A DNA stretch of 61,219 nt from an uncultured Gammaproteobacteria bacterium (GCA_964635515.1 CAZWNU010000003.1:1-61219); one strand, 5' to 3'. Positions 27,060 to 43,142 are shown, counted from the first letter of the stretch. Numbers and translations: made by a program. The notes: a model not told the origin generated them from the letters alone.

Positions 27060-27111
27060 TAATTTTAACTCAACATATTGAATTAGGTTTTTGTAACTTT
27101 TTTATATCACT

Positions 27112-27681
27112 ATGAAAAAGAAAAAAATTATTAAACCCAGAGGTTATACCTTAATGGAGTCCCTGGTAACCATGGCCCTGTTTTTAGCTATAATTTTGAT
27201 CACCGGATCCTTATATTCCTTAGCGCAGTCATATTACAATAGGGCCGAAAGCGAATTGGAATTAATTCAAAACGCCAGGGTTTCTTTTGATCGAATGAGT
27301 AGAGAAATAAGGCAATCAATTGATATAGCCAGCCCTTTATCAGCCGATCAATCTCAGGGGAGCGGAGAGATTGTGTTTCAGAACGGACATGACAGCGATA
27401 CCATAAACTATATTTATTATTATTTGGACGGGTCCAATTTGAGAAGGGCCAATTTGGTCTATTATTTTCCTGAAGAGCCTGATATCTATGTGAAGTATAA
27501 CAGTGTTAATCAGGCAGGGGAGCCCCCGGAGCAAGAGGTGCTGGAAGATAGGAAGGTGGGAGAATATTTCCATTCTGTAAATTTTTGGGGAGACGATGGT
27601 CTGGTCAATATTTCTTCGGAATTAATGAAAGAAGACTCCTCTTTTTTCTTGAGAACCTCTGTCTTTAGTAGAAATTATTAA
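27112..27681 (+). CDS. minor pilin, PilW/GspJ-like
   Basis: G|YTLMESLVTM; QNARVSFDRMSREIRQS. Confidence 0.8.
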   Translation: MKKKKIIKPRGYTLMESLVTMALFLAIILITGSLYSLAQSYYNRAESELELIQNARVSFDRMSREIRQSIDIASPLSADQSQGSGEIVFQNGHDSDTINYIYYYLDGSNLRRANLVYYFPEEPDIYVKYNSVNQAGEPPEQEVLEDRKVGEYFHSVNFWGDDGLVNISSELMKEDSSFFLRTSVFSRNY

Positions 27682-27708
27682 ATACTCATAAATCGATTCG
27701 ACACCAAT

Positions 27709-28929
27709 ATGAATATCTTTTTAGATAAAAAAGGAACCACTTTGTTAGTCACTATTTTATTAGTGGCTGTTCTTCTTTCTCTGGGCCTTTATTTTTTGGA
27801 TTTTTCTTTAACTGAGAAAAGAATATCAGAAGGACAGACCAAGGGGGTTAAGACATACCATTTAGCCGAGGCCGGAATTCAAGAGATGATCTGGAGATTA
27901 AAACATGACCAAGAGTATAAAAGCAATTTTGAGGAAGATCCGGAGTGGAGCGCTGATTTCGAGGTCTCCTCGCCTTTTGGAGGAAACGGTCATTATTCGG
28001 TAAAAATTGACAATACTGGCTTGGCCCAAGGGGATATCAGGTCGGTAGGAAAGGTAATTGAAGAGGATGGCAGGACCAGTCGGAGGATAGTAAAAACAAG
28101 AGTCTATAAAGCAGCTACCACGTCTCCGGCTTTGGATGGTTACGCTTTGTTCAGTGATAATGATTTGGATATTTTTTTGACCAATATAAGTGTTCCGGCT
28201 AGCAGTGTTCATGCCAACAACAATATAGATGTGGGTGGTCCTAATACAGAGATGTACGTGGAAAATGATTTAGGGGCGGTGAACAAAATATCCCAAAGTC
28301 ATTTTTCCAATATTGAAGTAGGAGGTGAGATGAGGGATAGCTATGATTATTCTCCTCCCCCTGAAGAATTGGAGATGCCCCCGGTATCTTTTTATGACTT
28401 AGACGATCCTGACTCTTTTAAGAGCAGGGCGGATGTGATTTATTCAGAACAAGAATTTAGAGATTTGTTGAACAACTCTTCAGGAGGGGAGCTGGTCTTG
28501 GATAATCATATTACTTATGTAGAAGGGCGAGTCCGGGTAAGACAGAACATTGATCTGATCATTAACGGCCTCTTGGTTTCTGAAGATAATATGGATATAG
28601 GCTTTTCTTGCGGTCATAATACCAGTGTTAATGTTAATTATTCCACCTCATCTCCTGCCGGGTTGATAGCTAATGGTAATATCAGGCTTAGACAGTGTCT
28701 TGCCGAGAGTGATATCAGAGGGGTTGTTTATGCTACTAGGGACATAAGGATGAATAATTTTTCCGGTGATGTAAATTTTGAAGGAGGTATGTACGCCAGG
28801 AACATAGAAATATTCAGTAATTGGAGAGACAACGCTATGAAATTTAATAAAAACATAATTAGTGACACTCTCCAGGCCACAGAGTTCTCGCCGGTGGTCA
28901 CAGTAGAGCACTGGGAAGAGGAATATTGA
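27709..28929 (+). CDS. large minor pilin, PilX/GspK-like
   Basis: KG|TTLLVTILL (no Glu5, as expected for K/X), YHLAEAGIQE, large beta-rich C-terminal part. Confidence 0.75.
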   Translation: MNIFLDKKGTTLLVTILLVAVLLSLGLYFLDFSLTEKRISEGQTKGVKTYHLAEAGIQEMIWRLKHDQEYKSNFEEDPEWSADFEVSSPFGGNGHYSVKIDNTGLAQGDIRSVGKVIEEDGRTSRRIVKTRVYKAATTSPALDGYALFSDNDLDIFLTNISVPASSVHANNNIDVGGPNTEMYVENDLGAVNKISQSHFSNIEVGGEMRDSYDYSPPPEELEMPPVSFYDLDDPDSFKSRADVIYSEQEFRDLLNNSSGGELVLDNHITYVEGRVRVRQNIDLIINGLLVSEDNMDIGFSCGHNTSVNVNYSTSSPAGLIANGNIRLRQCLAESDIRGVVYATRDIRMNNFSGDVNFEGGMYARNIEIFSNWRDNAMKFNKNIISDTLQATEFSPVVTVEHWEEEY

Positions 28930-29035
28930 TTTTGTGGTTTTAACTTGTTCCGGAATTATGGTATAATTTTTTAGAGCTAAAAAAGATTTTTATCCCGTTT
29001 TTTCTCAGCAATTGTTTTTTAATATTATCTAAAGG

Positions 29036-30136
29036 TTGGCAGCTTTATTTATGAGCATTTTTAAGAAAAATAAAAATTATCCTCTGGGGGTCGATGTTTC
29101 CGATTCTTCTATTAGATTTGCTCAGCTAAATAAGGGCTTGAAGAACAGGATAGGTCTGAGAGCTTTTGGGAGCATAGATTTGTCTCAAGGACTTATTTCA
29201 GAAGGAATAATCAAAAACGAGGAAGAAGTGGTCAAGAGCTTAAAAAAGATCTTTTCCAGCAGCAGGCTTAGTAAGCCAAATTCAAGCGAAGTGATAGCCT
29301 CCCTGCCCGAGAATAAAACTTTTGTCAAACTAATTAAAATTCAAAAATCAACCAATAAACTGGAAGATGTTGTTGAAGCTGAATTGGAAAAACACATTCC
29401 CTTTCATCCCAGAGAGATTTACTATGATTGGCAGGAAATAAGAAAAGGCAAGGATCATCATTTGGTGTTGGTTGGAGCGGCGCCTCGATCCGTGGTGGAT
29501 CAATATTATGATGTCTTTTCCAGGTCAGGTTTGACATTGGTTGCTTTGGAGATTGAGCCGATTGCCGTCTGTCGATCTATATTGGATGAAGAAACCCCGG
29601 AATTTCAGAATACCAAAGGTAAGAATCATATTTTAATAGATTTTGGTTTTTCTCATACCACTATTATTTTTTATTCTCGTGACACTGTTTTGTTTACTTC
29701 TGAAACCCAGATGTCAGGAGAAAAAATAACCCAGGAGATAGCCGGTAGCCTGAAGGTGGGCAGGAAAAAGGCTGAGAAGTACAAATTATCTCTGAGCAAG
29801 AAAAACAAGAACTACAAGAAGATAGTAAAAATAATAGACAGCAATATGGAGGAGTTGAATGTGAAATTGGGTCGGGTGATTGATTTTTATTATGAAAACT
29901 TTTCTGAGCGCGGCCCCATAGAGAGTGTTTTTTTTGTCGGAGGAGGAGCTTATATCCCTAAAATAGAAGATTATATTTCTTGCCTGCCCGCTTCTGTTAA
30001 CATAGACAAGGGTGACCCCTTATCTAAGATCAGTCAAGGAGAAAAAGCGAAAAAGATCTTTCAGGAGGAGGGAAATTTGACTTTTACTGTCGCTGTAGGG
30101 TTGGCTTTAAGTCAGATTTTTATTAAAAAGTTTTAG
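29036..30136 (+). CDS. pilM: type IV pilus assembly protein PilM
   Basis: LGVDVSDSSI, HIPF..EIYYDW, LEIEPIAV, LIDFG, FFVGGGA, FTVAVGLAL. Start may be ATG 29051. Confidence 0.9.
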   Translation: MAALFMSIFKKNKNYPLGVDVSDSSIRFAQLNKGLKNRIGLRAFGSIDLSQGLISEGIIKNEEEVVKSLKKIFSSSRLSKPNSSEVIASLPENKTFVKLIKIQKSTNKLEDVVEAELEKHIPFHPREIYYDWQEIRKGKDHHLVLVGAAPRSVVDQYYDVFSRSGLTLVALEIEPIAVCRSILDEETPEFQNTKGKNHILIDFGFSHTTIIFYSRDTVLFTSETQMSGEKITQEIAGSLKVGRKKAEKYKLSLSKKNKNYKKIVKIIDSNMEELNVKLGRVIDFYYENFSERGPIESVFFVGGGAYIPKIEDYISCLPASVNIDKGDPLSKISQGEKAKKIFQEEGNLTFTVAVGLALSQIFIKKF

Positions 30137-30142
30137 TTTTTT

Positions 30143-30676
30143 ATGTTGTTTTTGAATCTGCTGCCTCAAAAGTTTAGTCGAGAGATAAGATTAAGGAGCT
30201 TGTTTTTGATCGTGGTTAAGGCTGGTTTTGTTTTGATCTTTGTTTTTCTGGTGATAAGCTTTTCCTTTTTCACATCCGACAAGGTTTTACAGAACTTCTA
30301 TAGAGTGGTGGACAATACCAATTTTTTGATTCAAACCCAAGTAGAGGATCCGGTTGATGTCAGGGAGGTCAACCTAAAGATAAATGAGGTAGAAAGAATT
30401 AAGAAAAAATCTTTTGATTGGCTGGAATTGTTCGGGGCCGTATCTGAAATTTTACCCGAGGATATCTACGTCGAGTCTCTTAGAGTTGACAAAGAAGAAG
30501 GGCTCGCCTCTCTTACCGGCTTGGCTTTAAGCAGAGAGTCTCTGGTCTCTTTGCGGGATGAATTGGAAAGGTCGGAATATTTTTATAGCCCGGACATGCC
30601 CCTGGACAGTATTTTAAAAAGGGAGGATATTAATTTTGATATAAAAGTGAGAATAAATACAGAAAAATTCAATTAA
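30143..30676 (+). CDS. pilN: PilN-like protein
   Basis: LNLLP N-terminus, one TM, LPEDIYVESL, LTGLA.SRESL..LRDELE; position after pilM. Confidence 0.8.
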   Translation: MLFLNLLPQKFSREIRLRSLFLIVVKAGFVLIFVFLVISFSFFTSDKVLQNFYRVVDNTNFLIQTQVEDPVDVREVNLKINEVERIKKKSFDWLELFGAVSEILPEDIYVESLRVDKEEGLASLTGLALSRESLVSLRDELERSEYFYSPDMPLDSILKREDINFDIKVRINTEKFN

Positions 30677-30677
30677 T

Positions 30678-31403
30678 ATGGCCGAAAATGTTTTTCAAAA
30701 AATGAGTTTTACCCAAAAAATTGTTTATTTTATTCTTTTTGTTTTGCTTGTTCTTTTTATCTTGGTGATGTTTGTTATCAGGCCCAGTATGGCTAGCATA
30801 GAGCAGACTCGGGAGGCGGTAGCTGGCCAGAGCCAGGAGCTAAAAGAAAGGTATCTAAGGGGCATGAATGCCAGAATTATTTCTAGGAATCTTGATGAAA
30901 TAAAAGATGGTCTTGAGGTTCTGGACCAAGTATTTATCAAAAAAGACCGGTATTTGGACCTAATTACTCTTCTTGAGAACTTAGCTGAGGAAAATAATCT
31001 AGAAGAAAGGTTAAGTATTTTGACTGAAAGCTCTGAAGATAGAAATTTTTATCAAGTGGTTCCTGTTAATATGGAGTTGACAGGGAGTTTTAAGGATCAA
31101 CTCTCTTTCCTCTCCGCTCTTAAGGATAAGCCTAGTAGATTCAATATTAACTCCATAAGGATTACCAGTAAGAACCCGGAATCAATTACAGAATTAAGAG
31201 AGAGGAGGATGACTGGGGAAGAGATAGTTCTGTCCGAGCCGGATGTTTTAGACGAGGAGATTCTAGAAGAAGATGATGAGGTGGTCCCGGAGCTTGAAGA
31301 AGAATCGAATCAAGAAGAGGAAGAAGATATTCTTGAGGAGAGCATTATTCCGGAACAAGAAGTATCTTTAATGATATTCAGTGAGGTCTATTGGTTAAAA
31401 TAG
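30678..31403 (+). CDS. pilO: PilO-like protein with acidic insertion
   Basis: One TM, coiled coil, VPVNMELTGSFKDQLSFL; position after pilN. Confidence 0.75.
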   Translation: MAENVFQKMSFTQKIVYFILFVLLVLFILVMFVIRPSMASIEQTREAVAGQSQELKERYLRGMNARIISRNLDEIKDGLEVLDQVFIKKDRYLDLITLLENLAEENNLEERLSILTESSEDRNFYQVVPVNMELTGSFKDQLSFLSALKDKPSRFNINSIRITSKNPESITELRERRMTGEEIVLSEPDVLDEEILEEDDEVVPELEEESNQEEEEDILEESIIPEQEVSLMIFSEVYWLK

Positions 31404-31409
31404 AAATTT

Positions 31410-31685
31410 ATGATGGATATTAAAGATTTTAAAACTCAAAAAAGGATAATTTTCTTCTTTTTGTTAATAGTGGTTCTCTTTTCTTTGTCTTTTTCTTCCT
31501 GGTTTTTGTATGACAATTTTTATCAAACCACCACCTGGAAGGATGATTTGGGATCTAGTTTTGATAGTAAGCCTGCTATTCAGAGTGTTAATTTAAACAA
31601 AATGAGAGAGTTGATAGATTCAGATCAACAAAAGACACCCACAAGTACCCGGGAAGACTTGGATATTGATATCAATTTCAGATAA
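31410..31685 (+). CDS. small bitopic membrane protein in the PilP position
   Basis: One N-terminal TM, 91 aa, last gene of the pilMNO run. Confidence 0.55.
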   Translation: MMDIKDFKTQKRIIFFFLLIVVLFSLSFSSWFLYDNFYQTTTWKDDLGSSFDSKPAIQSVNLNKMRELIDSDQQKTPTSTREDLDIDINFR

Positions 31686-32826
31686 GGAAGATCAATTTTC
31701 GACAATATTCTCTTTTGTCCGGGGTTTTTAACTCTTGTTTTTTTCTCTCAGCTCGCTTTCTGTAATAATCATAATTATTCTTTATTTCCTTCATTTTGAT
31801 TATTAAATCTTTTTTGTCTTCAGGAATGAACAGTTCGACCATTCCTTTCTGAGATAATTCCGGTATTCCTCCCAGATCCGAGGCCAAAACGGGCAATCCG
31901 GCTTGAATGGCCTCGTAAATCACAGTCGGAGAGTTTTCGTAACAAAGAGAGGGCACGATCAAGCAGTCCGCTTTTCTCATCAACTCTTCCACTCCTTCTT
32001 TGTCTTTGCTTCCTAGGAAAAATACTCGGTCTCTAGAAGCAGATTCTTTTAGGTCTTCCTCCTCAGAGCCTCGTCCTATCACAATCAGTCTGCTTTTGGG
32101 AAGCGGATCTTTTTCAAAGGCGGAAATTAGGAAATCGATTCCCTTGTGTTTTTCCAATTGGCCTACGTATAAAAAATTAAAAAAGTCACCCTCCTTTTTA
32201 ATGCTCGACTTGGTTTTTTTGTTCGGCAGAGGGTTGCGAATTGTTTTTTTAAGCGAGTCAGGAAAGAATCTTCTTTCCTTATGAAGATCAAGGAGCCAGT
32301 GGGAAGGCGATATTACCAGATCAGGAGAACGCCAAAGTAGTCTTCCTATTCGTATATATAGCTTAGTCAGCCCGGAGGAGAGTATTTTTTCTTGACCTTT
32401 AATGATCAGGCCGCTGGGATGGAGGAGTTGAATATCATGAAGAGTATGAATATGTTTTATCCTCTTTTTCCTTAAAGCCTTGGCTGTAAGCCCTCCTATT
32501 CCTTTCAAATTATGAGTTATTACCAAATCCGGATTTTCTTTTTTTAGAATTTTTTTTAAAGCTATGTAGTTTTTCCAGTTGACAAGATCCCAGACATGCC
32601 AAAACAGACGAAGGGGTTTTGGGATTTTATCCAGATGATAATAGAGAGAAGAGAGGTGGTAAATATCTTGCTCTGCCTCAATTTTTTCTCCAGAGGGTGG
32701 TTTGCTCGTAATTATGGTCACTTCATGCCCTTCTTCGCGAAAACCTTGAGCTGTTAATTCCACTATTTTTTCAGCACCTCCTTTTTGATAAGGAGGATAA
32801 AGATTGTTGATCAAGATGATCTTCAT
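31678..32826 (-). CDS. GT4 family glycosyltransferase
   Basis: YPPYQKGGAE, YVGQLEKHKGI, PSLCYENSPTVIYEA, SDLGGIPE. Confidence 0.92.
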   Translation of the reverse strand: MKIILINNLYPPYQKGGAEKIVELTAQGFREEGHEVTIITSKPPSGEKIEAEQDIYHLSSLYYHLDKIPKPLRLFWHVWDLVNWKNYIALKKILKKENPDLVITHNLKGIGGLTAKALRKKRIKHIHTLHDIQLLHPSGLIIKGQEKILSSGLTKLYIRIGRLLWRSPDLVISPSHWLLDLHKERRFFPDSLKKTIRNPLPNKKTKSSIKKEGDFFNFLYVGQLEKHKGIDFLISAFEKDPLPKSRLIVIGRGSEEEDLKESASRDRVFFLGSKDKEGVEELMRKADCLIVPSLCYENSPTVIYEAIQAGLPVLASDLGGIPELSQKGMVELFIPEDKKDLIIKMKEIKNNYDYYRKRAERKKQELKTPDKREYCRKLIFLI

Positions 32827-32830
32827 AGCC

Positions 32831-33943
32831 TTATTTTTCCAAGATTTGATTTAGCCTTTGTCTCATTGTGCTTAGGGAGTACTCTGCCTCCGCCTTCTTT
32901 CTAGCTGCCACTCCCATTTTTTCTCTCCTAGCTGGGTCTCTTAAAAGTAAACCTATTTTATTGGCCAAGCTTTCAACCTCTCCGGTTTTGGCCAGATATC
33001 CTTCTTTTTGATTTTCAAAAACTTTCCTTACACCTGGCAGGTCGGATGCTACCACCGGCAGACCGCAGGCCATAGCTTCAATTAAAACTATTCCAAAAGC
33101 TTCACTGCTGTCGGTCGAGGGCAGGACAAAGATTTCACTCTCTCGGTAAATTTGAATTAATTTTTTTCTATCCAATTTGCCCAAGAAGCTAACTTTTTCT
33201 TCCAGGCCCAGTTTTTTCGTTTTCCTTTGATAAAAGGGTTTTAAATCGCCTTCTCCCACAATATTGATATGCCAATCATTCTCTTCCAGATGAGCGGCCG
33301 CTTCCAGAAGTTTATCTACTCCTTTGAAATAATGAGCAGTGTCCAGCCCCCCGACAAACAATATTGAGGTTCGGGAGTTTTGGGAGGAGCGGGAAGGGGA
33401 GAATTCTTCAGTGTCTACCCCAAAGGGAACCTCAAAGAATTTAGAAGAATTTTTTTGATAAAAGTTTTTCATCTGTCCGTTTTTAATGTAGTCAATACTT
33501 GAGACTATAATAGCATCGGCTTTTTTAAAAAGGCTCTTAGAGACCAGTTTGCTAGGAAAGCTTAAAATTTTAGCTGTTCTGCTTAGTCCTAAAGTATCCA
33601 TATGATAATGGATCACCAGTTTTTTTTGTCTTAACATAGTTGATTTCAGTAACCAGATTATCTCAGAGGTTCCGAAAAAGGGATAGTGAAGATAAAGGCA
33701 ATCAAATTTTTGCAGTTTCCAGATAAGTTGAATTAAAACAGCCCCGTTTCCGTATTTCAAACAGGGCCTTAAGGGTATCAGTTTTTGTTTGTCAGTATTT
33801 TTTTTCTCTTCTTTTTTTCGATATTGAGGAAAGAATGTATTCACCTCGTGTTTGGGGGTGAGGAGTTCTCCGATGTTGTGGGCGCTGTTGCCTATGCCCC
33901 CGGCATAGGGCGGGAAAGTGCAAACTATTTGTGCTATTCTCAT
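32831..33943 (-). CDS. GT4 family glycosyltransferase
   Basis: FPPYAGGIG, FVGGLD..HYFKGVD, PSTDSSEAFGIVLIEAMACG. Confidence 0.92.
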   Translation of the reverse strand: MRIAQIVCTFPPYAGGIGNSAHNIGELLTPKHEVNTFFPQYRKKEEKKNTDKQKLIPLRPCLKYGNGAVLIQLIWKLQKFDCLYLHYPFFGTSEIIWLLKSTMLRQKKLVIHYHMDTLGLSRTAKILSFPSKLVSKSLFKKADAIIVSSIDYIKNGQMKNFYQKNSSKFFEVPFGVDTEEFSPSRSSQNSRTSILFVGGLDTAHYFKGVDKLLEAAAHLEENDWHINIVGEGDLKPFYQRKTKKLGLEEKVSFLGKLDRKKLIQIYRESEIFVLPSTDSSEAFGIVLIEAMACGLPVVASDLPGVRKVFENQKEGYLAKTGEVESLANKIGLLLRDPARREKMGVAARKKAEAEYSLSTMRQRLNQILEK

Positions 33944-33998
33944 AGAAAAATTTTATCAAGAATTTACTTTAGTACAAGTGATCGTTTCAGTTTATACT

Positions 33999-34421
33999 TT
34001 AAAGCTCCTCTTTGTCAAATAGGCTTTTCTGCAATAGATAGACCATGATAAAGGCGAGTGAAGCTTGAAGGATGTCGGTTATGGATACATACCTTTGGGT
34101 TATAAGGGGTATGATCAGTATGATAATAGGCAGAGAAAAGGTTACTATATCACTCTTTAATTTATCCTCATATCTCAATTGGAGAGTTATGTCTAAACCC
34201 TCCTCTCTGGCCCTTCTTTTCTTTACCTTCCTGGTCATCTTAGTCTTTATCACAAAGATTAATCCAAAAAAAGATAAGGGGGCGAGAGATAAGATAATTT
34301 CCTTGAATCTGTCGAACTGATCCCAAAGGATGAAAAAAAATATACAAAAAATTATCAAAAGGACCAAAAAAACAAAGTTTAAAAACTCCACCACCATGTC
34401 TGTGGGTTTCATTTCTTTCAT
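33999..34421 (-). CDS. uncharacterised 4-TM membrane protein (one LKS...QA...LQKSL module)
   Basis: Hydrophobic segments; clearly similar to the adjacent 191-aa protein. Confidence 0.7.
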   Translation of the reverse strand: MKEMKPTDMVVEFLNFVFLVLLIIFCIFFFILWDQFDRFKEIILSLAPLSFFGLIFVIKTKMTRKVKKRRAREEGLDITLQLRYEDKLKSDIVTFSLPIIILIIPLITQRYVSITDILQASLAFIMVYLLQKSLFDKEEL

Positions 34422-34436
34422 ATTTTTTTGTTAATA

Positions 34437-35012
34437 TTATTTATCAAATAGGTTTTTTTGTAAGAAATAGACCACTACCAGGAAGAGAAGGGCCTGTATC
34501 AGGTTGCCGGTGTTGATTCCCTTGTTGATGAAGGCGGGGATCAACAAGATGACAATAGGGGTAAAGGAGGTTATAAATTCGCTTTTTAGTCTATTATTAG
34601 AGGTCAATTCCATAGTGATATCTCCCTCGTTGTCATTTATTAAGCTTTTTTGCAGAAAAAATACAGAAATAAAGACCACCAAGGCTTGAATAATTCCACT
34701 TAAACTAAGGCCGGCTTCTGTAAAAAGGGATATTCCCAGGGTAATAAGTGGTAAAAAGATTATTACCAAGTTGCTTTTAAGTTTATCGGATTTGTCCAGA
34801 TTCAGGACAGTATCCCTATCTTCTTCCATGCTTGTTATTTCATCCTCGTCTCCTTTAAAGAAGTTGGTCATTCTGGCAGCAAAAAAGACCATAAATAGAG
34901 CGACAGGAGCCGCTATTTGCAAAAAACCCTTAATAACATCCAGATAACTATAAAGGATGAAAAGAACGAAACAGACAATTAAAAAGTAATCTTTAGCTCT
35001 ACCTCCAAGCAT
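34437..35012 (-). CDS. uncharacterised 6-TM membrane protein (two LKS...QA...LQK modules)
   Basis: Internal duplication DKLKS..QALVV..LQKSL and NRLKS..QALLF..LQKNL. Confidence 0.7.
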   Translation of the reverse strand: MLGGRAKDYFLIVCFVLFILYSYLDVIKGFLQIAAPVALFMVFFAARMTNFFKGDEDEITSMEEDRDTVLNLDKSDKLKSNLVIIFLPLITLGISLFTEAGLSLSGIIQALVVFISVFFLQKSLINDNEGDITMELTSNNRLKSEFITSFTPIVILLIPAFINKGINTGNLIQALLFLVVVYFLQKNLFDK

Positions 35013-35029
35013 TTTTTTATTGTTAATTA

Positions 35030-35362
35030 TTATTTATTATCTTTATTTTTTATGGCTATCCCCCTGACAATATTGGTTATATCTTTCTCTATTTTAGCCA
35101 ATTTTATTCTTATTTTAAATATTAAGTAAAAAAGGACCACTACAGCCAGATAGATTAAAACTTCTATACCAGATCCGGAAAAACCAAGTCCGGCCACTAG
35201 GTTATCAATTTGTTTTATGAATATAATAGCAAAACCGGCTATTAACCAGAAGATCAGCCAAAAAACAAACTCTCCGGCTTTGATCTGCCCCTTCTGTTTT
35301 TGCCAGAAGAGTCGGGCCAAGAAAAAAGAAACTATTATTAAGGCTATTACTTGTTGAATCAT
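35030..35362 (-). CDS. DUF2304 family membrane protein
   Basis: FVFWLIFW, LVAGLGFSGSGIEVLIY, LAKIEKDITNIVRGIAI; adjacent to a GT2. Confidence 0.85.
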   Translation of the reverse strand: MIQQVIALIIVSFFLARLFWQKQKGQIKAGEFVFWLIFWLIAGFAIIFIKQIDNLVAGLGFSGSGIEVLIYLAVVVLFYLIFKIRIKLAKIEKDITNIVRGIAIKNKDNK

Positions 35363-35437
35363 ATTTTTTAGGATTTCCGGGTTCTTGAAAATCCGAATTA
35401 AAAGAAGTCTCTCAAGGTCTGTGAATTTTTAGAGTGA

Positions 35438-36103
35438 TTAATCGGTGATTTTAGCCAGGAGTAGGTCTTTTATTATTCTAATTCCTCCCCCGAAACTTTG
35501 ACCATAATCGTTATATATAACCATTATGGGAACTTCTTTGAACCTCAATTTATTCTTAAAAGTTTTATACATAATCTCGCTGCAGTGGGCCATTCCGTTT
35601 TGTTCCACTTTTATCAAGGGAGCCGTTTCTTTAGAAAAAGCTCGAAAACCGCTCTGGGGATCTGTCAGGTCGACTTTGAGTAAATGTTTGTTTACTATTC
35701 GGGCCAAGGGAAAGATCACATTTTTTTTCTGCCAAGGTATATCCGATTTTTTCTCCAAAAATCTGGAGCCAAAAACAATATCAACTTCTTTTTCCTTAAG
35801 GGGCTTTAGAACGTCTTTTATTTCTTCCGGTTTGAACTGTCCGTCAGCGTCAAAATGGACTATTATATCAGCGCCCTTTTCAAGGCAGTATTGATTGCCT
35901 GTTTCCAAGGCCGCTCCCTGCCCTTGGTTTATTAAGTGATTTAAAACCGTCACTCCATGTTTTCCAGCTTCTAGTCGTGTATTATCCCTGGAGCCGTCAT
36001 TGACCACCACTATCTCATCTACCCAGGGTTGGACCCGGGGCAGCACTTGACCTATGTTCTTTTCTTCATTCCAGGCCGGAATTACACAGAATACTTTTTC
36101 CAT
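35438..36103 (-). CDS. GT2 polyprenyl-phosphate glycosyltransferase (DPM1/PpgS-like)
   Basis: VIPAWNEE, VVNDGSRD, HLINQGQGAAL, HFDADGQF, GSRF, TDPQSGFRA. Confidence 0.9.
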   Translation of the reverse strand: MEKVFCVIPAWNEEKNIGQVLPRVQPWVDEIVVVNDGSRDNTRLEAGKHGVTVLNHLINQGQGAALETGNQYCLEKGADIIVHFDADGQFKPEEIKDVLKPLKEKEVDIVFGSRFLEKKSDIPWQKKNVIFPLARIVNKHLLKVDLTDPQSGFRAFSKETAPLIKVEQNGMAHCSEIMYKTFKNKLRFKEVPIMVIYNDYGQSFGGGIRIIKDLLLAKITD

Positions 36104-36104
36104 A

Positions 36105-37838
36105 TTATTTTTGGGTTACCCTTATTATCTCATCAATTGTAGTGACTCCCTTCCTCGCTTTAATTAAGCCGTCTTCGGTCATGGTAACCAGACCGTCCTG
36201 TCGTGCCTGTTTCTTAAGTTTTTCCTCACTAGCTTGTTCTAGGATAAGATTGGCCAGTTTGCTAGTGTTCTCCAATACCTCGTAAACCCCGATTCTTCCC
36301 TTGTAGCCCGTGTGGCCGCATTTTTCACAACCCCGACCCTTGTAAAAAAGCACATCCTCCAGTTTCTTTTCCCCTTCCGAGATCATATTTTTATCCCTCA
36401 GGCTCTCTATTATTTCTTTGGTGTTGAATTGTTTATCCAGTTCCTCAGAGGCCTTCTTAGACAGGTTGTAACTTTGGATGCAATTAAAGCATATTTTTCT
36501 GACCAGGCCTTGTGCTATGATAAGGTTGATTGTTCCGGATATTAAATAGGAGGCAATTCCCATATTACTTAGTCTGGATATAGTTGAAATGGTATCATTG
36601 GTGTGTAAAGTAGACAAGACCAGGTGTCCGGTCAGGGCGGCGTGGGTTGCTATTTCAGCGGTCTCTTTGTCCCTGATTTCCCCCACCATTATAATATCAG
36701 GGTCTTGGCGCAAGAAGGACCTGAGGCCCTTGGCAAAAGTAAATCCTATTTTGGGGTTGACCTGGGATTGGTTGATTCTGGGAATGCTATACTCTATCGG
36801 ATCCTCAATAGTAGAGATATTAACTTCCGGTTTGTTCAATATATCGAGAATAGTGTATAGGGTAGTGGTTTTACCAGAACCGGTCGGTCCGGTAACCAAT
36901 ATTTTTCCATGAGGTTTTTTAATGTTCCTTTTTATTTTTTCCAGACTTTCTTCTTGAAGGCCCAATTCTTCAAGATTCAATATTCTGCCTCCTTCGTTAA
37001 GAAGTCTCATTACTATCTTTTCTCCGTAAAAGGTAGGGATAATGGAGACTCGAAAAGACATTTTGTATTTACTGCTGTGAGCTTTGAATCTGCCGTCCTG
37101 AGGCATTCTGTGTTCATCTATTTTTAGATTAGCCAGAATTTTTATTCTGGCCACTATTCCATTCTCCAGAGATTTGTTTAAGGTCATTACATCATGGAGT
37201 ATTCCATCGATTCGGTAGCGAACGATTATTTTCTTTTCTTCCGGTTCAATATGCACATCACTGGCTTCTTGATAAATAGCATGTTCTATTATTTTGTCTA
37301 CCAACTTAATAGTAGACACTTCTTCGGCTTCATTTTTCAGGGCTTTGTTTAAATTTTTAACTCCTTCGCCTTCGCCATCCTTTGCTTCAGCAGGGAGTTC
37401 TTGTTTTAATTCTTTATGGTATTTTTTTAAGTAAGTATCTATGTTTTCCGGAGTGGTAACATAAATTTCAGGTTTTAGGCCGGTCTTTTTTTTAATGAAA
37501 TCAAAGATTTCCATTTGATCCGGCTTGGTAGTGGCTATTTTAATAGCTTTTTTGTTTTTGTCAAAAGCAATCAGGCGGTGGACAGAGGCTATTTTTTCCG
37601 GCAGGGTCATTAAAGCTTCTTTTTTGACATTTTTTTCCTCTAGGTCTGTGAATTTCAGATTATAATGTTGAGCCAACAGTTTATAAAAAGGGCCGGAAGA
37701 TATTATGTTTTTTTCCAAAAGGTATTGGGTAAAGTTCTTCCTACTCTTTTGGGCCTCTTTTTCATATTTATCCAACTGCTCTTCACTGAGTATTTGGTTT
37801 TTGATTAAGATATTTTTGATTTTCCCAGTCTTTTCCAT
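36105..37838 (-). CDS. pilB: type IV pilus extension ATPase PilB/GspE
   Basis: ASDVHIEP, RYRIDG, PQDGR, GPTGSGKTTT, TIEDPIEY, LRQDPDIIMVGEIRD, tetracysteine CFNC..CEKC, YKGRIGVYE. Confidence 0.95.
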   Translation of the reverse strand: MEKTGKIKNILIKNQILSEEQLDKYEKEAQKSRKNFTQYLLEKNIISSGPFYKLLAQHYNLKFTDLEEKNVKKEALMTLPEKIASVHRLIAFDKNKKAIKIATTKPDQMEIFDFIKKKTGLKPEIYVTTPENIDTYLKKYHKELKQELPAEAKDGEGEGVKNLNKALKNEAEEVSTIKLVDKIIEHAIYQEASDVHIEPEEKKIIVRYRIDGILHDVMTLNKSLENGIVARIKILANLKIDEHRMPQDGRFKAHSSKYKMSFRVSIIPTFYGEKIVMRLLNEGGRILNLEELGLQEESLEKIKRNIKKPHGKILVTGPTGSGKTTTLYTILDILNKPEVNISTIEDPIEYSIPRINQSQVNPKIGFTFAKGLRSFLRQDPDIIMVGEIRDKETAEIATHAALTGHLVLSTLHTNDTISTISRLSNMGIASYLISGTINLIIAQGLVRKICFNCIQSYNLSKKASEELDKQFNTKEIIESLRDKNMISEGEKKLEDVLFYKGRGCEKCGHTGYKGRIGVYEVLENTSKLANLILEQASEEKLKKQARQDGLVTMTEDGLIKARKGVTTIDEIIRVTQK

Positions 37839-37890
37839 AAAATACGCTAAAAGTATTAATTTTATTTATTATACCACACTCCAAAAACCT

Positions 37891-37918
37891 TTGACAATTT
37901 GAAAAAGGGGAATATAGT
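37891..37918 (+). promoter_or_regulatory. sigma70-type promoter for the mraY-ftsW-murG-murC cluster
   Basis: TTGACA, 16 nt, TATAGT. Confidence 0.6.
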
Positions 37919-37982
37919 ATTTGTCATGTTTTAAATTTTCAGGCAATATGATAAAGTAAAAAGTAAATTAGAGTATCTTTTT

Positions 37983-38402
37983 ATGATTAACCTTTCCAAG
38001 TTTTATCATTGTTTTTATTTAGGCAAAGAGAGAGTCGGTAGGATTTTGATGGATGTTTTTTTTCAAGACCTGTCTATAAAGATTTATTCTTTAGCAATTA
38101 TTTGCTTGAATCTACTCACCTGGTTGGCGGTTATCCTTTTGGTCAGAAGGGCCGGGGATGATCTTTTGGTCCTGCATTACAGCGTTGATTTCGGTGTTGA
38201 TCTGGTGGGAGACCCTTCTCGCTTGTATATGATCCCGGTTTTGGGAATGGTGGTCTTTTTGAGCAATGTATCGCTTTTGTTCATTCTATATCGATATGAT
38301 AATTTCAAATTCTTTTCTCACCTGCTTTTAGCTGTAGCCACGCTAGTAAATTTGTTTCTATTAATATCTTTGGGACCCATTTATTTATTTAATTTCAGTT
38401 AA
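37983..38402 (+). CDS. hypothetical 3-TM membrane protein upstream of mraY
   Basis: Three hydrophobic segments and LHYSVDFGVDLVG; 2-nt gap to mraY. Confidence 0.7.
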   Translation: MINLSKFYHCFYLGKERVGRILMDVFFQDLSIKIYSLAIICLNLLTWLAVILLVRRAGDDLLVLHYSVDFGVDLVGDPSRLYMIPVLGMVVFLSNVSLLFILYRYDNFKFFSHLLLAVATLVNLFLLISLGPIYLFNFS

Positions 38403-38404
38403 GT

Positions 38405-39460
38405 ATGGAAATTTTCTACATTATCAAAATTCTCCTATTGGCCATTACCGCCTTTATCTTCACTGTTGCCTGGACGCCCATCCTTACTCATTTTCTCTAT
38501 AAGTATAAATTAGGTAAGAAGATCAGAAATAATGGTCAAACCCCGGTTTTTACTAAGCTGCATGCCCACAAGGAGGGCACTCCGACCATGGGAGGGGTGC
38601 TTATCTGGGTAACCGCTCTTATCTTTATCCTGTTTTTCTATTATTTGGCCAGATTTTTTCCAGAGCAAGAGATCCTGCAGCATTTTAATTTTCTTTCAAG
38701 GAAAGAAACACTGCTTCCCTTAGGGGTTTTAGTGGCCACTGCTTTAGTGGGCCTATTTGACGATTGGCTGGATGTGCGGGGCAGAGGCGGATCTAAGACC
38801 GGTGGTCTGGGAATGAAGCATCGATTTTTGATCTATACCGCTATTGCCTGTATCGGCGCTTGGTGGTTTTATTTTAAATTGAATTGGACCGTTTTGGCAG
38901 TTCCTTTTTTAGGTACTTTTGAGATATCTTGGTGGTATATTCCTTTTTTCATTTTTGTGATAGTGGGAACAGCTTTTTCCGTTAATGAGACCGACGGCTT
39001 GGACGGATTAGCTGGAGGCAATCTTTTGACCGCCTTTAGTACTTTTACTGCCATCTCCTTTGTTTTGGGAAGATATGATCTGGCCGCCTTTTGCGCTGTT
39101 ATAACAGGGGCTTTACTGGCCTTTCTGTGGTTTAATATTCCTCCCGCCCGTTTTTACATGGGTGATACCGGGGCAATGAGCCTAGGAATTACTTTAGGGG
39201 TTATAGCTCTGCTTACCAATACCGCCCTGCTCTTGCCGATCATAGGTTTTGTTTTTGTTTTAGAATCTCTGTCTGTTATCCTTCAAGTTGCCTCCAAGAA
39301 GTTGCGTCAGGGAAAGAAGCTTTTTATATCAGCTCCCTTTCATCATCATTTGCAAGCCAGGGGTTGGGGAGAGCCTAAAATAGTAATGCGTCTTTGGGTT
39401 ATTGCCGGTATGAGTTCTGTTTTAGGTTTAATTATATTTCTATTAGACAGATTCCTTTAA
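38405..39460 (+). CDS. mraY: phospho-N-acetylmuramoyl-pentapeptide transferase
   Basis: KEGTPTMGG, GLFDD, NETDGLDGLA, FNIPPARFYMGDTG, APFHHHLQ. Confidence 0.97.
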   Translation: MEIFYIIKILLLAITAFIFTVAWTPILTHFLYKYKLGKKIRNNGQTPVFTKLHAHKEGTPTMGGVLIWVTALIFILFFYYLARFFPEQEILQHFNFLSRKETLLPLGVLVATALVGLFDDWLDVRGRGGSKTGGLGMKHRFLIYTAIACIGAWWFYFKLNWTVLAVPFLGTFEISWWYIPFFIFVIVGTAFSVNETDGLDGLAGGNLLTAFSTFTAISFVLGRYDLAAFCAVITGALLAFLWFNIPPARFYMGDTGAMSLGITLGVIALLTNTALLLPIIGFVFVLESLSVILQVASKKLRQGKKLFISAPFHHHLQARGWGEPKIVMRLWVIAGMSSVLGLIIFLLDRFL

Positions 39461-39495
39461 GTCTTATCGGAAACATCTTGTCAATTTAGGAAAAA

Positions 39496-40641
39496 ATGGT
39501 AAAAATTAAAAAGAGTTTAAAAAATTTTTTAGCGCCAGGGAAGAATGAACATGAACCGGACAAGCTTTTAATAGCATTAGTGGGTATTGTTTTGATCTTT
39601 GGTCTAATAATCCTTTCCAGCGCCACCTCTGTTATAGCCTACAACCGATTTGGAGATAGTTATTATTACTTTAATAGTCAATTGGTTTCCGTTATACTGG
39701 GTGTTTTTGTCTTTTTTATTTTTTCTAAGATAAATTACACTTTTTGGAAGAAGTATGCCGTATTCTTTTTGGCTGTTTCTTGCTTTTTGTTGCTCCTGGT
39801 CTTCATCCCCGGCCTGGCAGCTGACTATGAGAAAGCCCGGAGATGGATAAATATTTTCGGCTTTTCCTTGCAGCCCTCGGAGTTTGTAAAGATCTTTTTT
39901 CTAATTTATTTGGCTGCTTGGCTGGAGAGGAGAAAAGAGGATCTGGGATCGATCTCTACCGGCATCGGCCCCTTCTTATTTGTTCTGGCCGCAATCACTT
40001 TTTTGATGTTTTTGCAACCGGACATAGGCACCCTTTCGGTCGTCTTGGGTTCTTCTTTGATCGTTTATTTTGTCGGAGGAGGCAAGATCCTTCATCTGAT
40101 AGTTGTTAGTTTGATCGGGTGCAGTTTGCTTTTCGGTGCCTATCAGACCATGCCCTACATTCAAGATCGTTTTAAATGTTTTGTTAACCCCCAATTGGAT
40201 ACCAGGGATGTTTGTTATCAAGTCAATCAGTCTTTGATAGCGGTCGGTTCTGGTGGTTGGTGGGGCAGAGGCATTGGAGAAAGTAGGCAAAAATTCGCCT
40301 ATTTGCCGGAAATCAGCGGTGATTCCATTTTTTCTATTATGGCTGAAGAAGTGGGCTTTGTTTGGTCCTCTTTATTGATCTTCCTATACTTTCTGATTTT
40401 TTATAGAGGGGTCAGGATAGCCAGATATGCTGCTGATAGGTTCGGGCAGCTCTTGGCGGTGGGTATTGTCTCTTGGATCATGCTGCAAACTCTTTTGAAT
40501 ATAGGTGGTATGATAAATATAATCCCCATAACAGGAGTGCCCTTGCCTCTGTTCAGTTACGGTGGTTCGGCCATATTGGCCACTCTAATGGCCTTGGGTA
40601 TTTTGGTTAATATTAGTAAATATACCACTGACAAAAAATGA
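39496..40641 (+). CDS. ftsW: SEDS peptidoglycan glycosyltransferase FtsW
   Basis: ARRWI, QPSEFVK, QPDIGT, YQVNQSLIAVGSGG, LPEISGDSIF, GVPLPLFSYGGS. Confidence 0.95.
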   Translation: MVKIKKSLKNFLAPGKNEHEPDKLLIALVGIVLIFGLIILSSATSVIAYNRFGDSYYYFNSQLVSVILGVFVFFIFSKINYTFWKKYAVFFLAVSCFLLLLVFIPGLAADYEKARRWINIFGFSLQPSEFVKIFFLIYLAAWLERRKEDLGSISTGIGPFLFVLAAITFLMFLQPDIGTLSVVLGSSLIVYFVGGGKILHLIVVSLIGCSLLFGAYQTMPYIQDRFKCFVNPQLDTRDVCYQVNQSLIAVGSGGWWGRGIGESRQKFAYLPEISGDSIFSIMAEEVGFVWSSLLIFLYFLIFYRGVRIARYAADRFGQLLAVGIVSWIMLQTLLNIGGMINIIPITGVPLPLFSYGGSAILATLMALGILVNISKYTTDKK

Positions 40642-41708
40642 AAAAGGAAAATAAAAAAACTATCTTCTTAACCGGAGGAGGAACCGGTGGCTCGGTCTCC
40701 CCACTTTTGGCAGTGAAAAAGTCTTTGGAAAAACATTCAGTTAATTGGGCTTTTGTTTGGGTAGGCACCAGGAACGGAGTGGAAAGAGAGATGATCAAGC
40801 AGGAGAAAAATATTAGTTTTGTTTCTATTCCCAGTGGCAAATTAAGGAGATATTTTTCTTGGCGCAACTTTGTTGATCCTTTTAAATTGATAATTGCTTT
40901 TTTTTGCTCTGTTTACCTCCTGTTCAAAAAAAAGCCCGACTTGGTGCTTAGTGCCGGTAGCTTCGTCAGTGTCCCGGTTGCTTGGGCGGCTTGGTTTTTT
41001 AGGGTGCCTGTTTTAATTCATCAACAAGACCTCAGGCCCGGTCTGGCCAACAAGCTAATGGCCCCTGTGGCCCGGGTGGTGACGGTTGCCTTTGCCAGCT
41101 CTCTAAAAGACTATGGAGCTAAGGCTAAACATATAGGAAACCCTTTGGAAATCGATCCCGGTCAGGGAGGAGGCGGGACCGGATTTGCCCTTGATCCCGA
41201 CTCCCCGGTCATCTTAATTACGGGCGGGGGCACAGGCTCCCTGGCTATTAACAGTTTGGTGGAGGAGAATATTGATGATTTACTTGAGATAGGTCAAATA
41301 TTTCACATAACTGGTAGAGATAAGAAAGTTTTAAATAAAAGATCCGGATATTTTGTTTTCCCCTTTCTGGAGCGTGAGTCTATGTTTGAGATTATTAGGA
41401 GGGCGGATGTGGTTGTGAGTCGAGCCGGCCTGGGGTCTTTGACCGAATTATCTTTTCTGGGAAAGCCAAGCATCTTAATTCCTTTGCCCGGGACCCATCA
41501 AGAAGATAATGCCCAAGAATTTAAAAACCATGAAGCAGCCCTTGTTTTGGATCAAAGGAAGCTTTCCGGAGAAGAGTTTAAGAACAGTATTAAAAGCTTG
41601 GTTGAGGATGAATCTCGGCGGAGAGAATTAAGTCAAAACATTCAAGGAGTTGTTAAACCGGGAGCGGAGCGGGAGATGCTTAGTATAATAAGACAGATAG
41701 TAAAATAA
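40638..41708 (+). CDS. murG: lipid II GlcNAc transferase MurG
   Basis: TGGGTGGSV, GSFVSVPV, HQQD..PGLANK, GNP, GGGTGS, SRAG, HQEDNA. Confidence 0.95.
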   Translation: MKKENKKTIFLTGGGTGGSVSPLLAVKKSLEKHSVNWAFVWVGTRNGVEREMIKQEKNISFVSIPSGKLRRYFSWRNFVDPFKLIIAFFCSVYLLFKKKPDLVLSAGSFVSVPVAWAAWFFRVPVLIHQQDLRPGLANKLMAPVARVVTVAFASSLKDYGAKAKHIGNPLEIDPGQGGGGTGFALDPDSPVILITGGGTGSLAINSLVEENIDDLLEIGQIFHITGRDKKVLNKRSGYFVFPFLERESMFEIIRRADVVVSRAGLGSLTELSFLGKPSILIPLPGTHQEDNAQEFKNHEAALVLDQRKLSGEEFKNSIKSLVEDESRRRELSQNIQGVVKPGAEREMLSIIRQIVK

Positions 41709-41744
41709 TCCGATAAATAAAAGTTATCGGTCAAACATAGTTTT

Positions 41745-43142
41745 ATGGACTTATCACGAATCAAAAAAATTTACATGATTGGAATTAAAGGGGTGGGTAT
41801 GACCATGTTGGCTCAATTTCTGAATCAAAAGGGTTTTAAGCTGAGCGGCTCTGATATTCCTGAGGAGTTTATGACCGATCAGACCTTAAAAGATGTCGGG
41901 ATTGAGGTCAAGAATGAATTTGATCCCAAAAATATACCCGGAGACACAGATCTAATAATTTATTCCACCGCCTATACCGAAAACACCAATCCGGAATTGG
42001 CTTGGGCGCAGAAGAACAAGTTTAAAACTCTCAGTTATCCCGAGGCTTTGAGTGATATTTTTAATCAATATTATGGTTTGGCGGTTACCGGAAGTCATGG
42101 CAAGACCACTACAACCGCTTGGTTGGGCTATGTTATGTTTCGAGCCGGTTTAAAACCCAATGTTTTAGTGGGTTCTCGGGTCGAGCAGTTCCAGGGCAGC
42201 GCCCTGGTAGGCCAATCGGATTATTTAGTGATCGAGGCTGATGAGTATCAGAATAAGCTTCAGTATTTTAATCCTAAGGCAGTTCTGTTAAACAACATTG
42301 AACACGATCATCATGATTTTTTTCCCACTCCTGAAAGTTACCTCCAAGCTTTTCTGAGTTTTATAAAAAGAATTCCCAGCAAAGGTTTTTTAGTGGCCAA
42401 TTTGGACGATCCTCAGATCCTCCATCATGCCGAGTCGAATTGCCAAGGGAGGGTTATTAGCTACGGAGTGGAGAATGAACAGGTCGATTTTTTCGGTTAT
42501 GATCTAAGACAAGACAGGGAAAAACAGTATTTCAAGGTCAGGGTCAAGGAAAAAGAAGAAGAGGGAGAGTTGGGAGATTTTAGTATTTCCTTGCCAGGCA
42601 AGCACAATATCTATAATGCCTTAGCTGTAATAGCCACCTCCATGGAACTAGGACTCGGTCTCCTGGAGATTCGAACCTATCTGGAGGAATTCCAAGGCAC
42701 CCATAGAAGGTCTCAGGTTATGGGAGAATTTCGAGGAGCTGTGCTAATAGATGATTATGCTCATCATCCCAGTGAGATTAGAACTACGCTTTCCGGTCTC
42801 AGACAGATCTATCCTGACAGAAAGATGAGAGTAGTTTTTCATCCTCATACTTATTCTCGAACCAAGGCCTTGCTAAAAGAGTTTTCCGAAAGTTTTGATG
42901 AAGCTCAGGAATTGATTGTCCTGGATATTTACGGTTCTGCCAGAGAGGAGCAGGGAGGAGTCCATAGCCGGGATTTGGTAAACAAGGCTAAAAAACACAA
43001 TCCCGAGCTTCAGGTCTCTCACATCCCCACTCTTAGGGAGTGTGAGGATTATTTAAGAAAAACTTTGGAATCCGGGGATCTGGCGGTTTTGATGGGAGCC
43101 GGAGATGTTTTTCGCATCGGGGACAATCTGGTAAAAGATTGA
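41745..43142 (+). CDS. murC: UDP-N-acetylmuramate--L-alanine ligase
   Basis: IGIKGVGM, GSHGKTTT, EADEY, PGKHNIYNA, DDYAHHPSE, FHPHTYSRT, MGAGD. Confidence 0.96.
   Translation: MDLSRIKKIYMIGIKGVGMTMLAQFLNQKGFKLSGSDIPEEFMTDQTLKDVGIEVKNEFDPKNIPGDTDLIIYSTAYTENTNPELAWAQKNKFKTLSYPEALSDIFNQYYGLAVTGSHGKTTTTAWLGYVMFRAGLKPNVLVGSRVEQFQGSALVGQSDYLVIEADEYQNKLQYFNPKAVLLNNIEHDHHDFFPTPESYLQAFLSFIKRIPSKGFLVANLDDPQILHHAESNCQGRVISYGVENEQVDFFGYDLRQDREKQYFKVRVKEKEEEGELGDFSISLPGKHNIYNALAVIATSMELGLGLLEIRTYLEEFQGTHRRSQVMGEFRGAVLIDDYAHHPSEIRTTLSGLRQIYPDRKMRVVFHPHTYSRTKALLKEFSESFDEAQELIVLDIYGSAREEQGGVHSRDLVNKAKKHNPELQVSHIPTLRECEDYLRKTLESGDLAVLMGAGDVFRIGDNLVKD

Follow-up and report, generated by a model that had tools for sequence, protein, structure and literature searches.

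Seven genes on the minus strand of contig CAZWNU010000003.1 (assembly GCA_964635515.1, recorded as an uncultured Gammaproteobacteria bacterium) form a run that begins with pilB, the gene for the extension ATPase of type IV pili, and continues with genes for glycosyltransferases and small membrane proteins. The analysed stretch (positions 1-61219 of the contig, 61,219 nt) is called the window below. We consider it probable that this run is a hybrid transcription unit, which arose by an inversion in which a pilus operon and an envelope glycan operon exchanged their tails. The co-transcription of pilB with the glycan genes would then be a by-product of the rearrangement, tolerated because both operons probably serve housekeeping functions of the envelope. 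An initial annotation of the window had taken the same gene order as the sign of a pilus-coupled surface glycosylation system, a reading that is weakly supported overall.

The genome under study, that of an ultrasmall bacterium of the Falkowbacteria type, comprises 0.91 Mb in 42 contigs. A reading of the open reading frames (ORFs) and of their Pfam matches confirmed the run as it had been described: pilB is followed by a family 2 glycosyltransferase (GT2), a DUF2304 protein, two small membrane proteins (TM191 and TM140) and two family 4 glycosyltransferases (GT4a and GT4b), and all seven ORFs were recovered with unchanged coordinates (Table 1). The run converges on pilMNO-x91, and the 3' end of GT4b overlaps x91 by 8 nt. 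A third family 4 glycosyltransferase (GT4c) and a short-chain dehydrogenase/reductase (SDR), which had been reported from the other side of the pilin genes, were found there. On the plus strand, the run DUF4012-mreB-GT4c-S8/FG-GAP-SDR passes unbroken into pilC, the minor pilin genes and pilMNO.

Two samples of related loci were compared with the window. For 40 relatives from the same patescibacterial order, about 18 kb around the DUF2304 gene were annotated by BLASTP against the window proteins; a wider sample was formed from species-representative genomes and comprises their 80 best GT2 loci. Of the 61 genomes sampled from the order, 60 encode DUF2304, with a single copy above the cut-off. 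The block GT2>DUF2304>(TM140-like)>GT4a>GT4b (arrowheads give the direction of transcription) is nearly universal in the order, and the position of GT4a is syntenic across nearly all relatives. The gene before GT2 varies. In 17 of the 40 order-level loci and 30 of the 80 wider loci it is SDR, which is the last gene of a DUF4012>MreB>GT4c>S8>SDR run. An intact PilB ortholog (57-76% identity) occupies this position in 11/40 and 8/80 loci, and a very divergent PilB-like protein (22-31% identity, termed PilB' below) in 6/40 and 31/80. Direct adjacency of x139, the gene upstream of mraY, was counted in the wider sample only (5/80).

When all order-level relatives with a DUF2304 match are considered, an intact PilB ortholog is found less than 3 kb from DUF2304 and on the same strand in 13 of 59, representing 5 of 26 families. 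The linkage between pilB and the glycan genes is far beyond chance, yet it is confined to part of the order. At order level the neighbourhood on which the pilus-coupled proposal had been built is not conserved; where SDR precedes GT2, pilB heads a normal pilB-pilC operon. Literature searches found no described patescibacterial pilB-glycosyltransferase cluster. A supposed PilB next to GT2 in two loci of one family (f5; L048, L070) was rejected as a further case of linkage because it is a PilT-like paralog located two genes downstream.

The arrangement from which the window is likely to derive could be traced in genomes that lack the junction. The best PilB match was taken from 20 genomes without PilB next to GT2 (the GT2 neighbour of genome G028 was not examined). 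In 12 of these (families f3, f24, f20, f15, f6, f21, and f23), PilB (54-59% identity) heads a canonical pilus operon that in most cases continues with pilins and PilMNO; the dcw genes from which it diverges are those found in the window (MurG< FtsW< MraY< x139< / PilB> PilC>; L079-L088, L097, L098). Three families carry the pilus operon and the glycan operon in convergent orientation. On single contigs of genomes G056, G013, and G022 the order is x139< PilB> PilC> ... PilMNO> <GT4b ... <DUF2304 <GT2, and beyond GT2 it continues with <SDR <S8 in G056 and G022; the convergent layout of G009 is partial. Inversion of the segment from pilC to GT2 in this layout reproduces the window gene for gene, the predicted order being x139< PilB> GT2> DUF2304> TM> GT4a> GT4b> <x91 <PilO <PilN <PilM <pilins <PilC <SDR <S8 <GT4c <MreB <DUF4012.

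An inversion predicts a reciprocal junction at which SDR is followed by PilC. This junction is present in the window and in all six of the PilB>GT2 relatives that were checked (families f1, f8, and f19); the basal families have SDR>GT2 and PilB>PilC. The polarity of the change was taken from a maximum-likelihood tree of concatenated GT2, GT4a, and GT4b, which is a tree of the block genes and not a species tree. The SDR>GT2 families are basal in this tree, and all PilB>GT2 and PilB'>GT2 loci fall into one clade (SH-aLRT 100) together with loci of the convergent type. The gap between PilB and GT2 is 80-280 nt in several other families versus 1-16 nt in most close relatives, a pattern which fits a rearrangement scar that was compacted later.

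We thus propose that the ancestor would have had (i) a pilus operon, pilB-pilC-minor pilins-pilMNO, transcribed away from the dcw genes, and (ii) an envelope operon DUF4012-mreB-GT4c-subtilase-SDR-GT2-DUF2304-(small membrane protein)-GT4a-GT4b, commonly followed by genes for a 640-aa protein with a predicted GT-C fold, a CDP-alcohol phosphatidyltransferase, and a PMT_2/STT3-like GT-C protein. In one sub-clade the two operons would have become convergent neighbours. An inversion with breakpoints between pilB and pilC and between SDR and GT2 would then have exchanged their 3' halves, resulting in pilB-GT2-...-GT4b and ...-SDR-pilC-...-pilO. Glycan genes would lie on both sides of the pilus genes because the inversion split one ancestral operon.

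The other product of the same inversion corresponds to the run subtilase/FG-GAP - SDR - pilC - minor pilins at 21133-25479 of the window. A possible adhesin-protease co-expressed with pili had been suggested for this region. Basal relatives have GT2, not pilC, after the subtilase and SDR.

Several observations weigh against a single, functionally neutral inversion. Family f6, which has the convergent layout, nests among the PilB>GT2 loci in the block tree; either the tree is imperfect there or more than one event has occurred. Even before the inversion the pilus operon and the glycan operon lay side by side, and this proximity might in itself have a functional basis. Furthermore, the junction is very stable: many descendant lineages have kept a dead PilB' before GT2, even where the pilus genes have left, which hints at a functional tie, and the dN/dS ratio of PilB' is 0.09-0.19 in every pair with estimable dS, indicating purifying selection.

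The commonest layout in the 80 species-level loci is MurC< MurG< FtsW< MraY< x139< PilB'> GT2> DUF2304> GT4a> GT4b> SDR< S8< GT4c< MreB<. This is the arrangement of the window minus pilC-pilO and with PilB shrunk to 330-420 aa. In these PilB' proteins (loci L113, L119, L125, L130, L137, L139, L149, L156-L159, L162, L164, L166, L176, L178, and others), the N-terminal domains are gone. Only about half of the sequences retain the lysine of Walker A, and hardly any retain the Asp box, the glutamate of Walker B, or the two histidines of the His box. PilB' was assigned by positional homology and by the tree of the glycan block. A PilB phylogeny was not used for this purpose, as the very long PilB' branches fall outside all intact paralogs, probably due to long-branch attraction. 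The PilB'-headed operons of other Patescibacteria share with the window the slot between x139-mraY and GT2 as well as the downstream genes GT2-DUF2304-GT4-GT4; they differ in that the ATPase of the window is full-length with all catalytic motifs and that pilC-pilO are still at the locus. The junction between pilB and GT2 in the window presumably represents an earlier stage of such operons, in which the motor is intact.

These relics raise the question whether PilB also has, or is acquiring, a function other than that of a motor and acts on a GT2-DUF2304 synthase as its regulator, scaffold or nucleotide sensor. A junction made by the inversion would then have been kept by selection, with PilB' as the end point of an exaptation. 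The conservation of PilB' in 31 of 80 loci, under purifying selection and with most catalytic motifs lost, is in favour of such a role, and so is family f16, in which PilB' is found between SDR and GT2 (L056/L067/L074) in genomes that encode an intact PilB-PilC operon elsewhere (L095/L096). This layout is explained by a further inversion of the segment from PilB' to GT4b, which carried PilB' along with the GT2 block. There is also a precedent: Myxococcus xanthus PilB signals for exopolysaccharide production (PMC5544727), so that in this species an extension ATPase is linked to the production of polysaccharide by a route that does not require pilus assembly (PMC5544727, PMC6957770). That link is regulatory, via the Dif pathway, and not operonic, whereas here the link consists of gene order. 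However, the PilB of the window is fully intact and the pilus genes are adjacent, and nothing in the window requires a second role. PilB' has been lost wholly in 5 of the 80 loci with the glycan block intact, which argues against an obligatory role, and in the SDR>GT2 families this block operates with no PilB at all. Long branches prevent a placement of PilB' in the PilB tree. We consider a second role unlikely.

It is equally unlikely that the inversion coupled PilB to envelope glycan synthesis in a way on which selection could act, and that a moonlighting function as scaffold or regulator of the synthase is already present in the intact PilB of the window. If it did, moonlighting would be the pre-adaptation that let descendants drop the pilus genes and the ATPase chemistry and keep a PilB-derived pseudoenzyme in the glycan machinery. 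The window would be a living intermediate in this transition from motor to pseudoenzyme, in which the operon tail swap that started it can still be read.

All features of an intact motor are found in the PilB of the window. It matches PF00437 (T2SSE, 1e-133) and carries the MshEN N-domain (PF05157, 4e-9) at residues 59-143. The best NCBIfam model over the full length is TIGR02538 (PilB), with 583 bits, which misses the equivalog cut-off of 675.65; scores below this type of cut-off are usual for divergent phyla. The Walker A motif (GPTGSGKT), the Asp box (TIEDPIEY), the Walker B motif (DPDIIMVGEIRD), and the His box (GHLVLSTLHTND) are all present, as is the C-terminal tetracysteine motif (CFNC ... 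CEKC). Identity to the positional orthologs is 54-79%. The genes pilC, pilM, pilN, pilO, and those for the pilins are all located within 12 kb in the window, and the PilB orthologs of relatives head pilB-pilC operons. PilB would still act as the working motor of the pilus which is encoded next door. Elsewhere in the genome, a 1010-aa ORF (C22:2634-5666, minus strand; C numbers denote other contigs of this genome) is made up of the PilB/T2SSE ATPase domain twice in tandem, as a fusion of two PilB units; a PilT-like gene comes after it. Many relatives likewise have open frames with this domain and a length of about 1010-1040 aa.

Only one nucleotide separates the stop codon of pilB from the start codon of GT2 (TAAtATG). 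A consensus scan found no terminator-like site between the two genes; it placed the strongest promoter-like sites ahead of pilB, in the divergent gap between pilB and x139 (11/12 matches at 37897-37868 on the minus strand, with TG, and at 37891-37918 on the plus strand). Judged by this spacing and these scans, co-transcription of pilB with the GT2 run, as had been proposed initially, is plausible. The operon might be merely apparent if the glycan genes were expressed separately from an internal promoter at the 3' end of pilB or in one of the later gaps. Weak internal promoter-like matches exist at 36133-36104 (9/12) and, before GT4a, at 34018-33989 (10/12); GT2 is separated from DUF2304 by 75 nt and TM140 from GT4a by 55 nt, and the wider PilB-GT2 spacing of several other families has been mentioned above. 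However, a spacing of 1 nt gives termination no room, the promoter-like matches in the region barely exceed the shuffled expectation (25 vs. 17.4 +/- 4.7), and internal promoters would supplement the read-through from pilB, not replace it. Separate expression is thus considered very unlikely.

The glycan genes themselves are new members of known families. GT2 is a short catalytic protein of the DPM1/GtrB/ArnC lineage, soluble and without transmembrane helices, in which the DAD and QxGFR-type columns are invariant across 12 orthologs. Its best curated NCBIfam model, covering positions 2-223 of 226 with an E-value of 7e-48, is PpgS, the mycobacterial polyprenyl-phospho-N-acetylgalactosaminyl synthase. 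The score of 162.9 bits is below the equivalog cut-off of 370 bits, which speaks against equating the two proteins; GT2 is a homolog and not a demonstrated equivalog of PpgS. The best relatives in PDB (DPMS 5mlz, GtrB, and ArnC) are all polyprenyl-phosphate glycosyltransferases. The DUF2304 gene is co-oriented with GT2, and the pair has been kept in essentially all relatives. DUF2304 is the family of GacJ and Rv3632, small membrane proteins which bind and stimulate GacI and PpgS, respectively; outside the membrane, a GT-C enzyme (GacL) then consumes the lipid-linked sugar (10.1101/180810).

Homology thus supports the earlier assignment of GT2 and DUF2304 to the PpgS/Rv3632 type, and we regard the pair as a candidate synthase for a polyprenyl-phosphate sugar, similar to GacI/GacJ of Streptococcus pyogenes or PpgS/Rv3632 of Mycobacterium tuberculosis. 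As in these systems, a short soluble GT2 is encoded beside a DUF2304 protein with three hydrophobic segments, and as for GacI/GacJ/GacL, candidate partners with a predicted GT-C fold are encoded in the genome; in relatives they are adjacent. The systems from Streptococcus and Mycobacterium decorate wall polysaccharides. In contrast to them, the pair in the window has no rhamnan or arabinogalactan genes nearby, has two GT4 genes beside it and pilB at its head, and belongs in its ancestral layout to an operon with mreB, DUF4012, subtilase, and SDR.

TM191 and TM140 are paralogous (BLASTP E-values 5e-11 and 2e-9) and are built from a hairpin module, which is repeated internally. Searches of both proteins against Pfam and NCBIfam returned only sub-threshold noise (RseC_MucC, 19.6 bits; STM3941, 19.2 bits). 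The family comes in a one-module form (about 137 aa) and a two-module form (about 200 aa), the latter also being found in relatives. Most relatives with the family have one gene only, of about 137 or about 200 aa; in the genus studied here, a two-module (191 aa) and a one-module form (140 aa) stand in tandem. A member of the TM140 family follows DUF2304 in 25 of 99 loci, and GT4a follows directly in 52 of 99. These membrane proteins had been viewed as accessory, flippase or transferase parts. We retain the accessory role because only 25 of the 99 loci have the family after DUF2304. A flippase role similar to GtrA or ArnE/F, suggested by size, number of hydrophobic segments, and position, remains a guess because three quarters of the loci are without the family.

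The initial annotation had noted that the window contains no recognisable oligosaccharyltransferase, and this is borne out: no GT-C or Wzy_C gene was found in the window, and all matches from this genome (six to Wzy_C and one to PMT_2) are on other contigs. Up to three conserved genes come after GT4b in 9 of the 40 order-level loci, and the wider sample has further cases; these genes code for a polytopic protein of about 640 aa, a CDP-alcohol phosphatidyltransferase, and a GT-C protein of about 600 aa. In the genome under study, the corresponding set is located on contig C6, where the two genes for proteins with a predicted GT-C fold form a divergent pair with the phosphatidyltransferase gene between them (Table 1); basal relatives have this set in synteny with GT4b.

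Neither Pfam nor a sequence-profile search of PDB gave a match for the 640-aa protein from C6. An AlphaFold2 model (pLDDT 78.6, pTM 0.82) was compared by fold. The eight top PDB matches from Foldseek are all GT-C enzymes (among them AftA, STT3 twice, DPY19, ALG9 twice, and AglB) with probabilities of 0.72-1.0. The TM-scores are only 0.27-0.40, which counts against a firm assignment, and the protein is a candidate GT-C enzyme at the fold level only. The GT-C enzymes matched use donors linked to polyprenyl phosphate or diphosphate, and the two C6 proteins are likely users of the lipid-linked sugar made by GT2/DUF2304.

In the pathway which we envisage, GT2/DUF2304 would charge polyprenyl phosphate with a monosaccharide on the cytoplasmic face of the membrane. 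The lipid-linked sugar would be flipped, possibly with the help of TM140/TM191 where these are present, and the two GT-C-fold proteins from C6 would pass the sugar to an extracytoplasmic acceptor in the envelope. Candidate acceptors are a wall glycopolymer, a lipoglycan or secreted proteins, perhaps with pilins among them. The three GT4 proteins and SDR would supply cytoplasmic steps. The ancestral partners mreB, DUF4012, and a secreted subtilase, together with the constant dcw neighbours, suggest a role in the envelope at large and not one in pili specifically. By analogy, the combination of a GT4 pair, a CDP-alcohol phosphatidyltransferase, and GT-C proteins is compatible with a lipoglycan route resembling that for PIM/LM in Actinobacteria, although the phosphatidyltransferase may be just a housekeeping enzyme.

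A system dedicated to the pilus, in which the sugar from GT2/DUF2304 (and the GT4 proteins) decorates pilins or pilus-associated surface proteins and in which co-expression with the motor is adaptive, would account for the tight coupling of pilB and GT2 and for the fact that pilus and glycan operons are neighbours in the whole sub-clade, be they convergent or swapped. The GT-C protein from C6 that matches PMT_2 belongs to a family which includes protein O-mannosyltransferases. In Pseudomonas aeruginosa, TfpW modifies group IV pilins, and this precedent shows that a GT-C enzyme and polyprenyl-phosphate arabinose can act on pilins (10.1101/2020.04.19.049825). We nevertheless consider such a system improbable. 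The block of the basal families is co-operonic with mreB, DUF4012, subtilase, and SDR and adjoins no pilus gene; the pilB-GT2 junction is derived and has a reciprocal partner. The whole glycan block has been kept in lineages that lost the local pilus genes, and GT-C genes are next to pilin genes in none of the loci seen.

In addition, a different conserved candidate for a pilin O-oligosaccharyltransferase is encoded directly after the major pilin gene, on contig C9. Its gene codes for a member of Wzy_C, the family of O-antigen ligase and of the O-oligosaccharyltransferases PglL/TfpO. Orthologs are present in 29 of 41 genomes searched (including the genome under study), with one or two such pilin genes ending just upstream in 22 of the 29 loci, which are usually a few kb downstream of a second PilB paralog. 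For TfpO/PilO and PglL (Wzy_C proteins that use Und-PP-linked glycans) and TfpW of Pseudomonas/Neisseria, the transferase is encoded next to the major pilin. The window has a transferase of neither class and no adjacent major pilin, and the TfpO-like arrangement of this genome (pilA-Wzy_C-pilD) is on C9. Its conserved position next to pilin genes makes the C9 protein a candidate pilin O-oligosaccharyltransferase of the TfpO/PglL type, and, should the pili of these organisms carry glycans, this locus is a better candidate than the window. A study of Saccharibacteria pili contains pilin O-glycosylation sites as predictions only (PMC11623550).

Besides that on C9, Wzy_C genes are found on C16, C29, C19, C26, and C1, and two phosphoglycosyl transferases of the Bac_transf family are encoded on C17 and C21. 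A second gene of the MraY/WecA family (C1:11883-12407) is located about 0.8 kb upstream of a match to a PilT-like ATPase (C1:13199-13993). For a genome of 0.9 Mb, this set for lipid-linked glycan transfer is an unusually large investment.

The features discussed are compiled in Table 1. Among the neighbours of the run, x139 codes for a protein of 139 aa without a family match. The whole order has kept this gene, directly upstream of mraY in every arrangement, and it may encode a dcw-cluster component that has yet to be described, possibly FtsL-like.

Table 1. Features of the pilB-glycan locus in the window and of related loci on other contigs (C6, C9) of the same genome.
Feature	Position	Strand	Remarks
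DUF4012, mreB, GT4c, S8 subtilase/FG-GAP, SDR	16729-24301	+	Pfam matches; head of the ancestral envelope operon
GT4c	19792-21084	+	beyond the pilin genes
SDR	23279-24301	+	beyond the pilin genes
Reciprocal inversion junction SDR/pilC	24302-24321	+	20-nt gap
pilC, four minor pilins + x232, pilM, pilN, pilO, x91	24322-31685	+	Pfam matches; tail of the ancestral pilus operon
pilC	24322-25479	+	directly after SDR
GT4b	31678-32826	-	cytoplasmic GT-B glycosyltransferase, last in run; PF00534 4.1e-27, PF13439 1.4e-20
GT4a	32831-33943	-	cytoplasmic GT-B glycosyltransferase; Glycos_transf_1 PF00534 4.7e-43
TM140	33999-34421	-	small membrane protein; four hydrophobic segments; one module
TM191	34437-35012	-	small membrane protein; conserved hairpin module, twice
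DUF2304 protein	35030-35362	-	110 aa; PF10066 3.7e-16; three hydrophobic segments; GacJ/Rv3632-like
GT2	35438-36103	-	221 aa; PF00535 8e-24; candidate polyprenyl-phosphate sugar synthase, GacI/PpgS-like
pilB	36105-37838	-	first gene of run; 577 aa; intact type IV pilus extension ATPase
Divergent intergenic region pilB / x139-mraY	37839-37982		best promoter-like sites of both strands
x139	37983-38402	+	139 aa; no family match
x139-mraY-ftsW-murG-murC (dcw genes)	37983-43142	+	divergent from pilB; neighbourhood kept in both arrangements
PMT_2/STT3-like GT-C	C6:14220-16103	-	627 aa; PMT_2 2.6e-6, also STT3
CDP-alcohol phosphatidyltransferase	C6:16170-16757	-	CDP-OH_P_transf 2.5e-33
640-aa GT-C-fold protein	C6:16803-18725	+	no Pfam match; fold comparison only
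Major pilin - Wzy_C	C9:31569-35070	same strand	169-aa pilin (GFTLIELLVVIAIIGLL...), 687-aa Wzy_C with TPR-like tail; then pilD (prepilin peptidase), ftsA, ftsZ

If the run is a hybrid unit as proposed, its 1-nt coupled gene pair is the scar of an inversion that swapped two operon tails, which calls for caution when function is inferred from operon membership in compact genomes. Pilin glycosylation is better sought at the pilA-Wzy_C-pilD locus. The window supplies an origin and an intact-motor stage for the glycan operons headed by a dead PilB, which makes the evolution of this pseudoenzyme testable. The glycan genes would belong to a nearly universal envelope glycan module of Falkowbacteria-type Patescibacteria, which consists of GT4c, SDR, a GacI/GacJ-like synthase, two GT4 proteins, and two enzymes with a predicted GT-C fold; mreB and the dcw genes are linked to this module. 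The cell envelope of these organisms is essentially uncharacterised, and it is this envelope that mediates their episymbiotic life.

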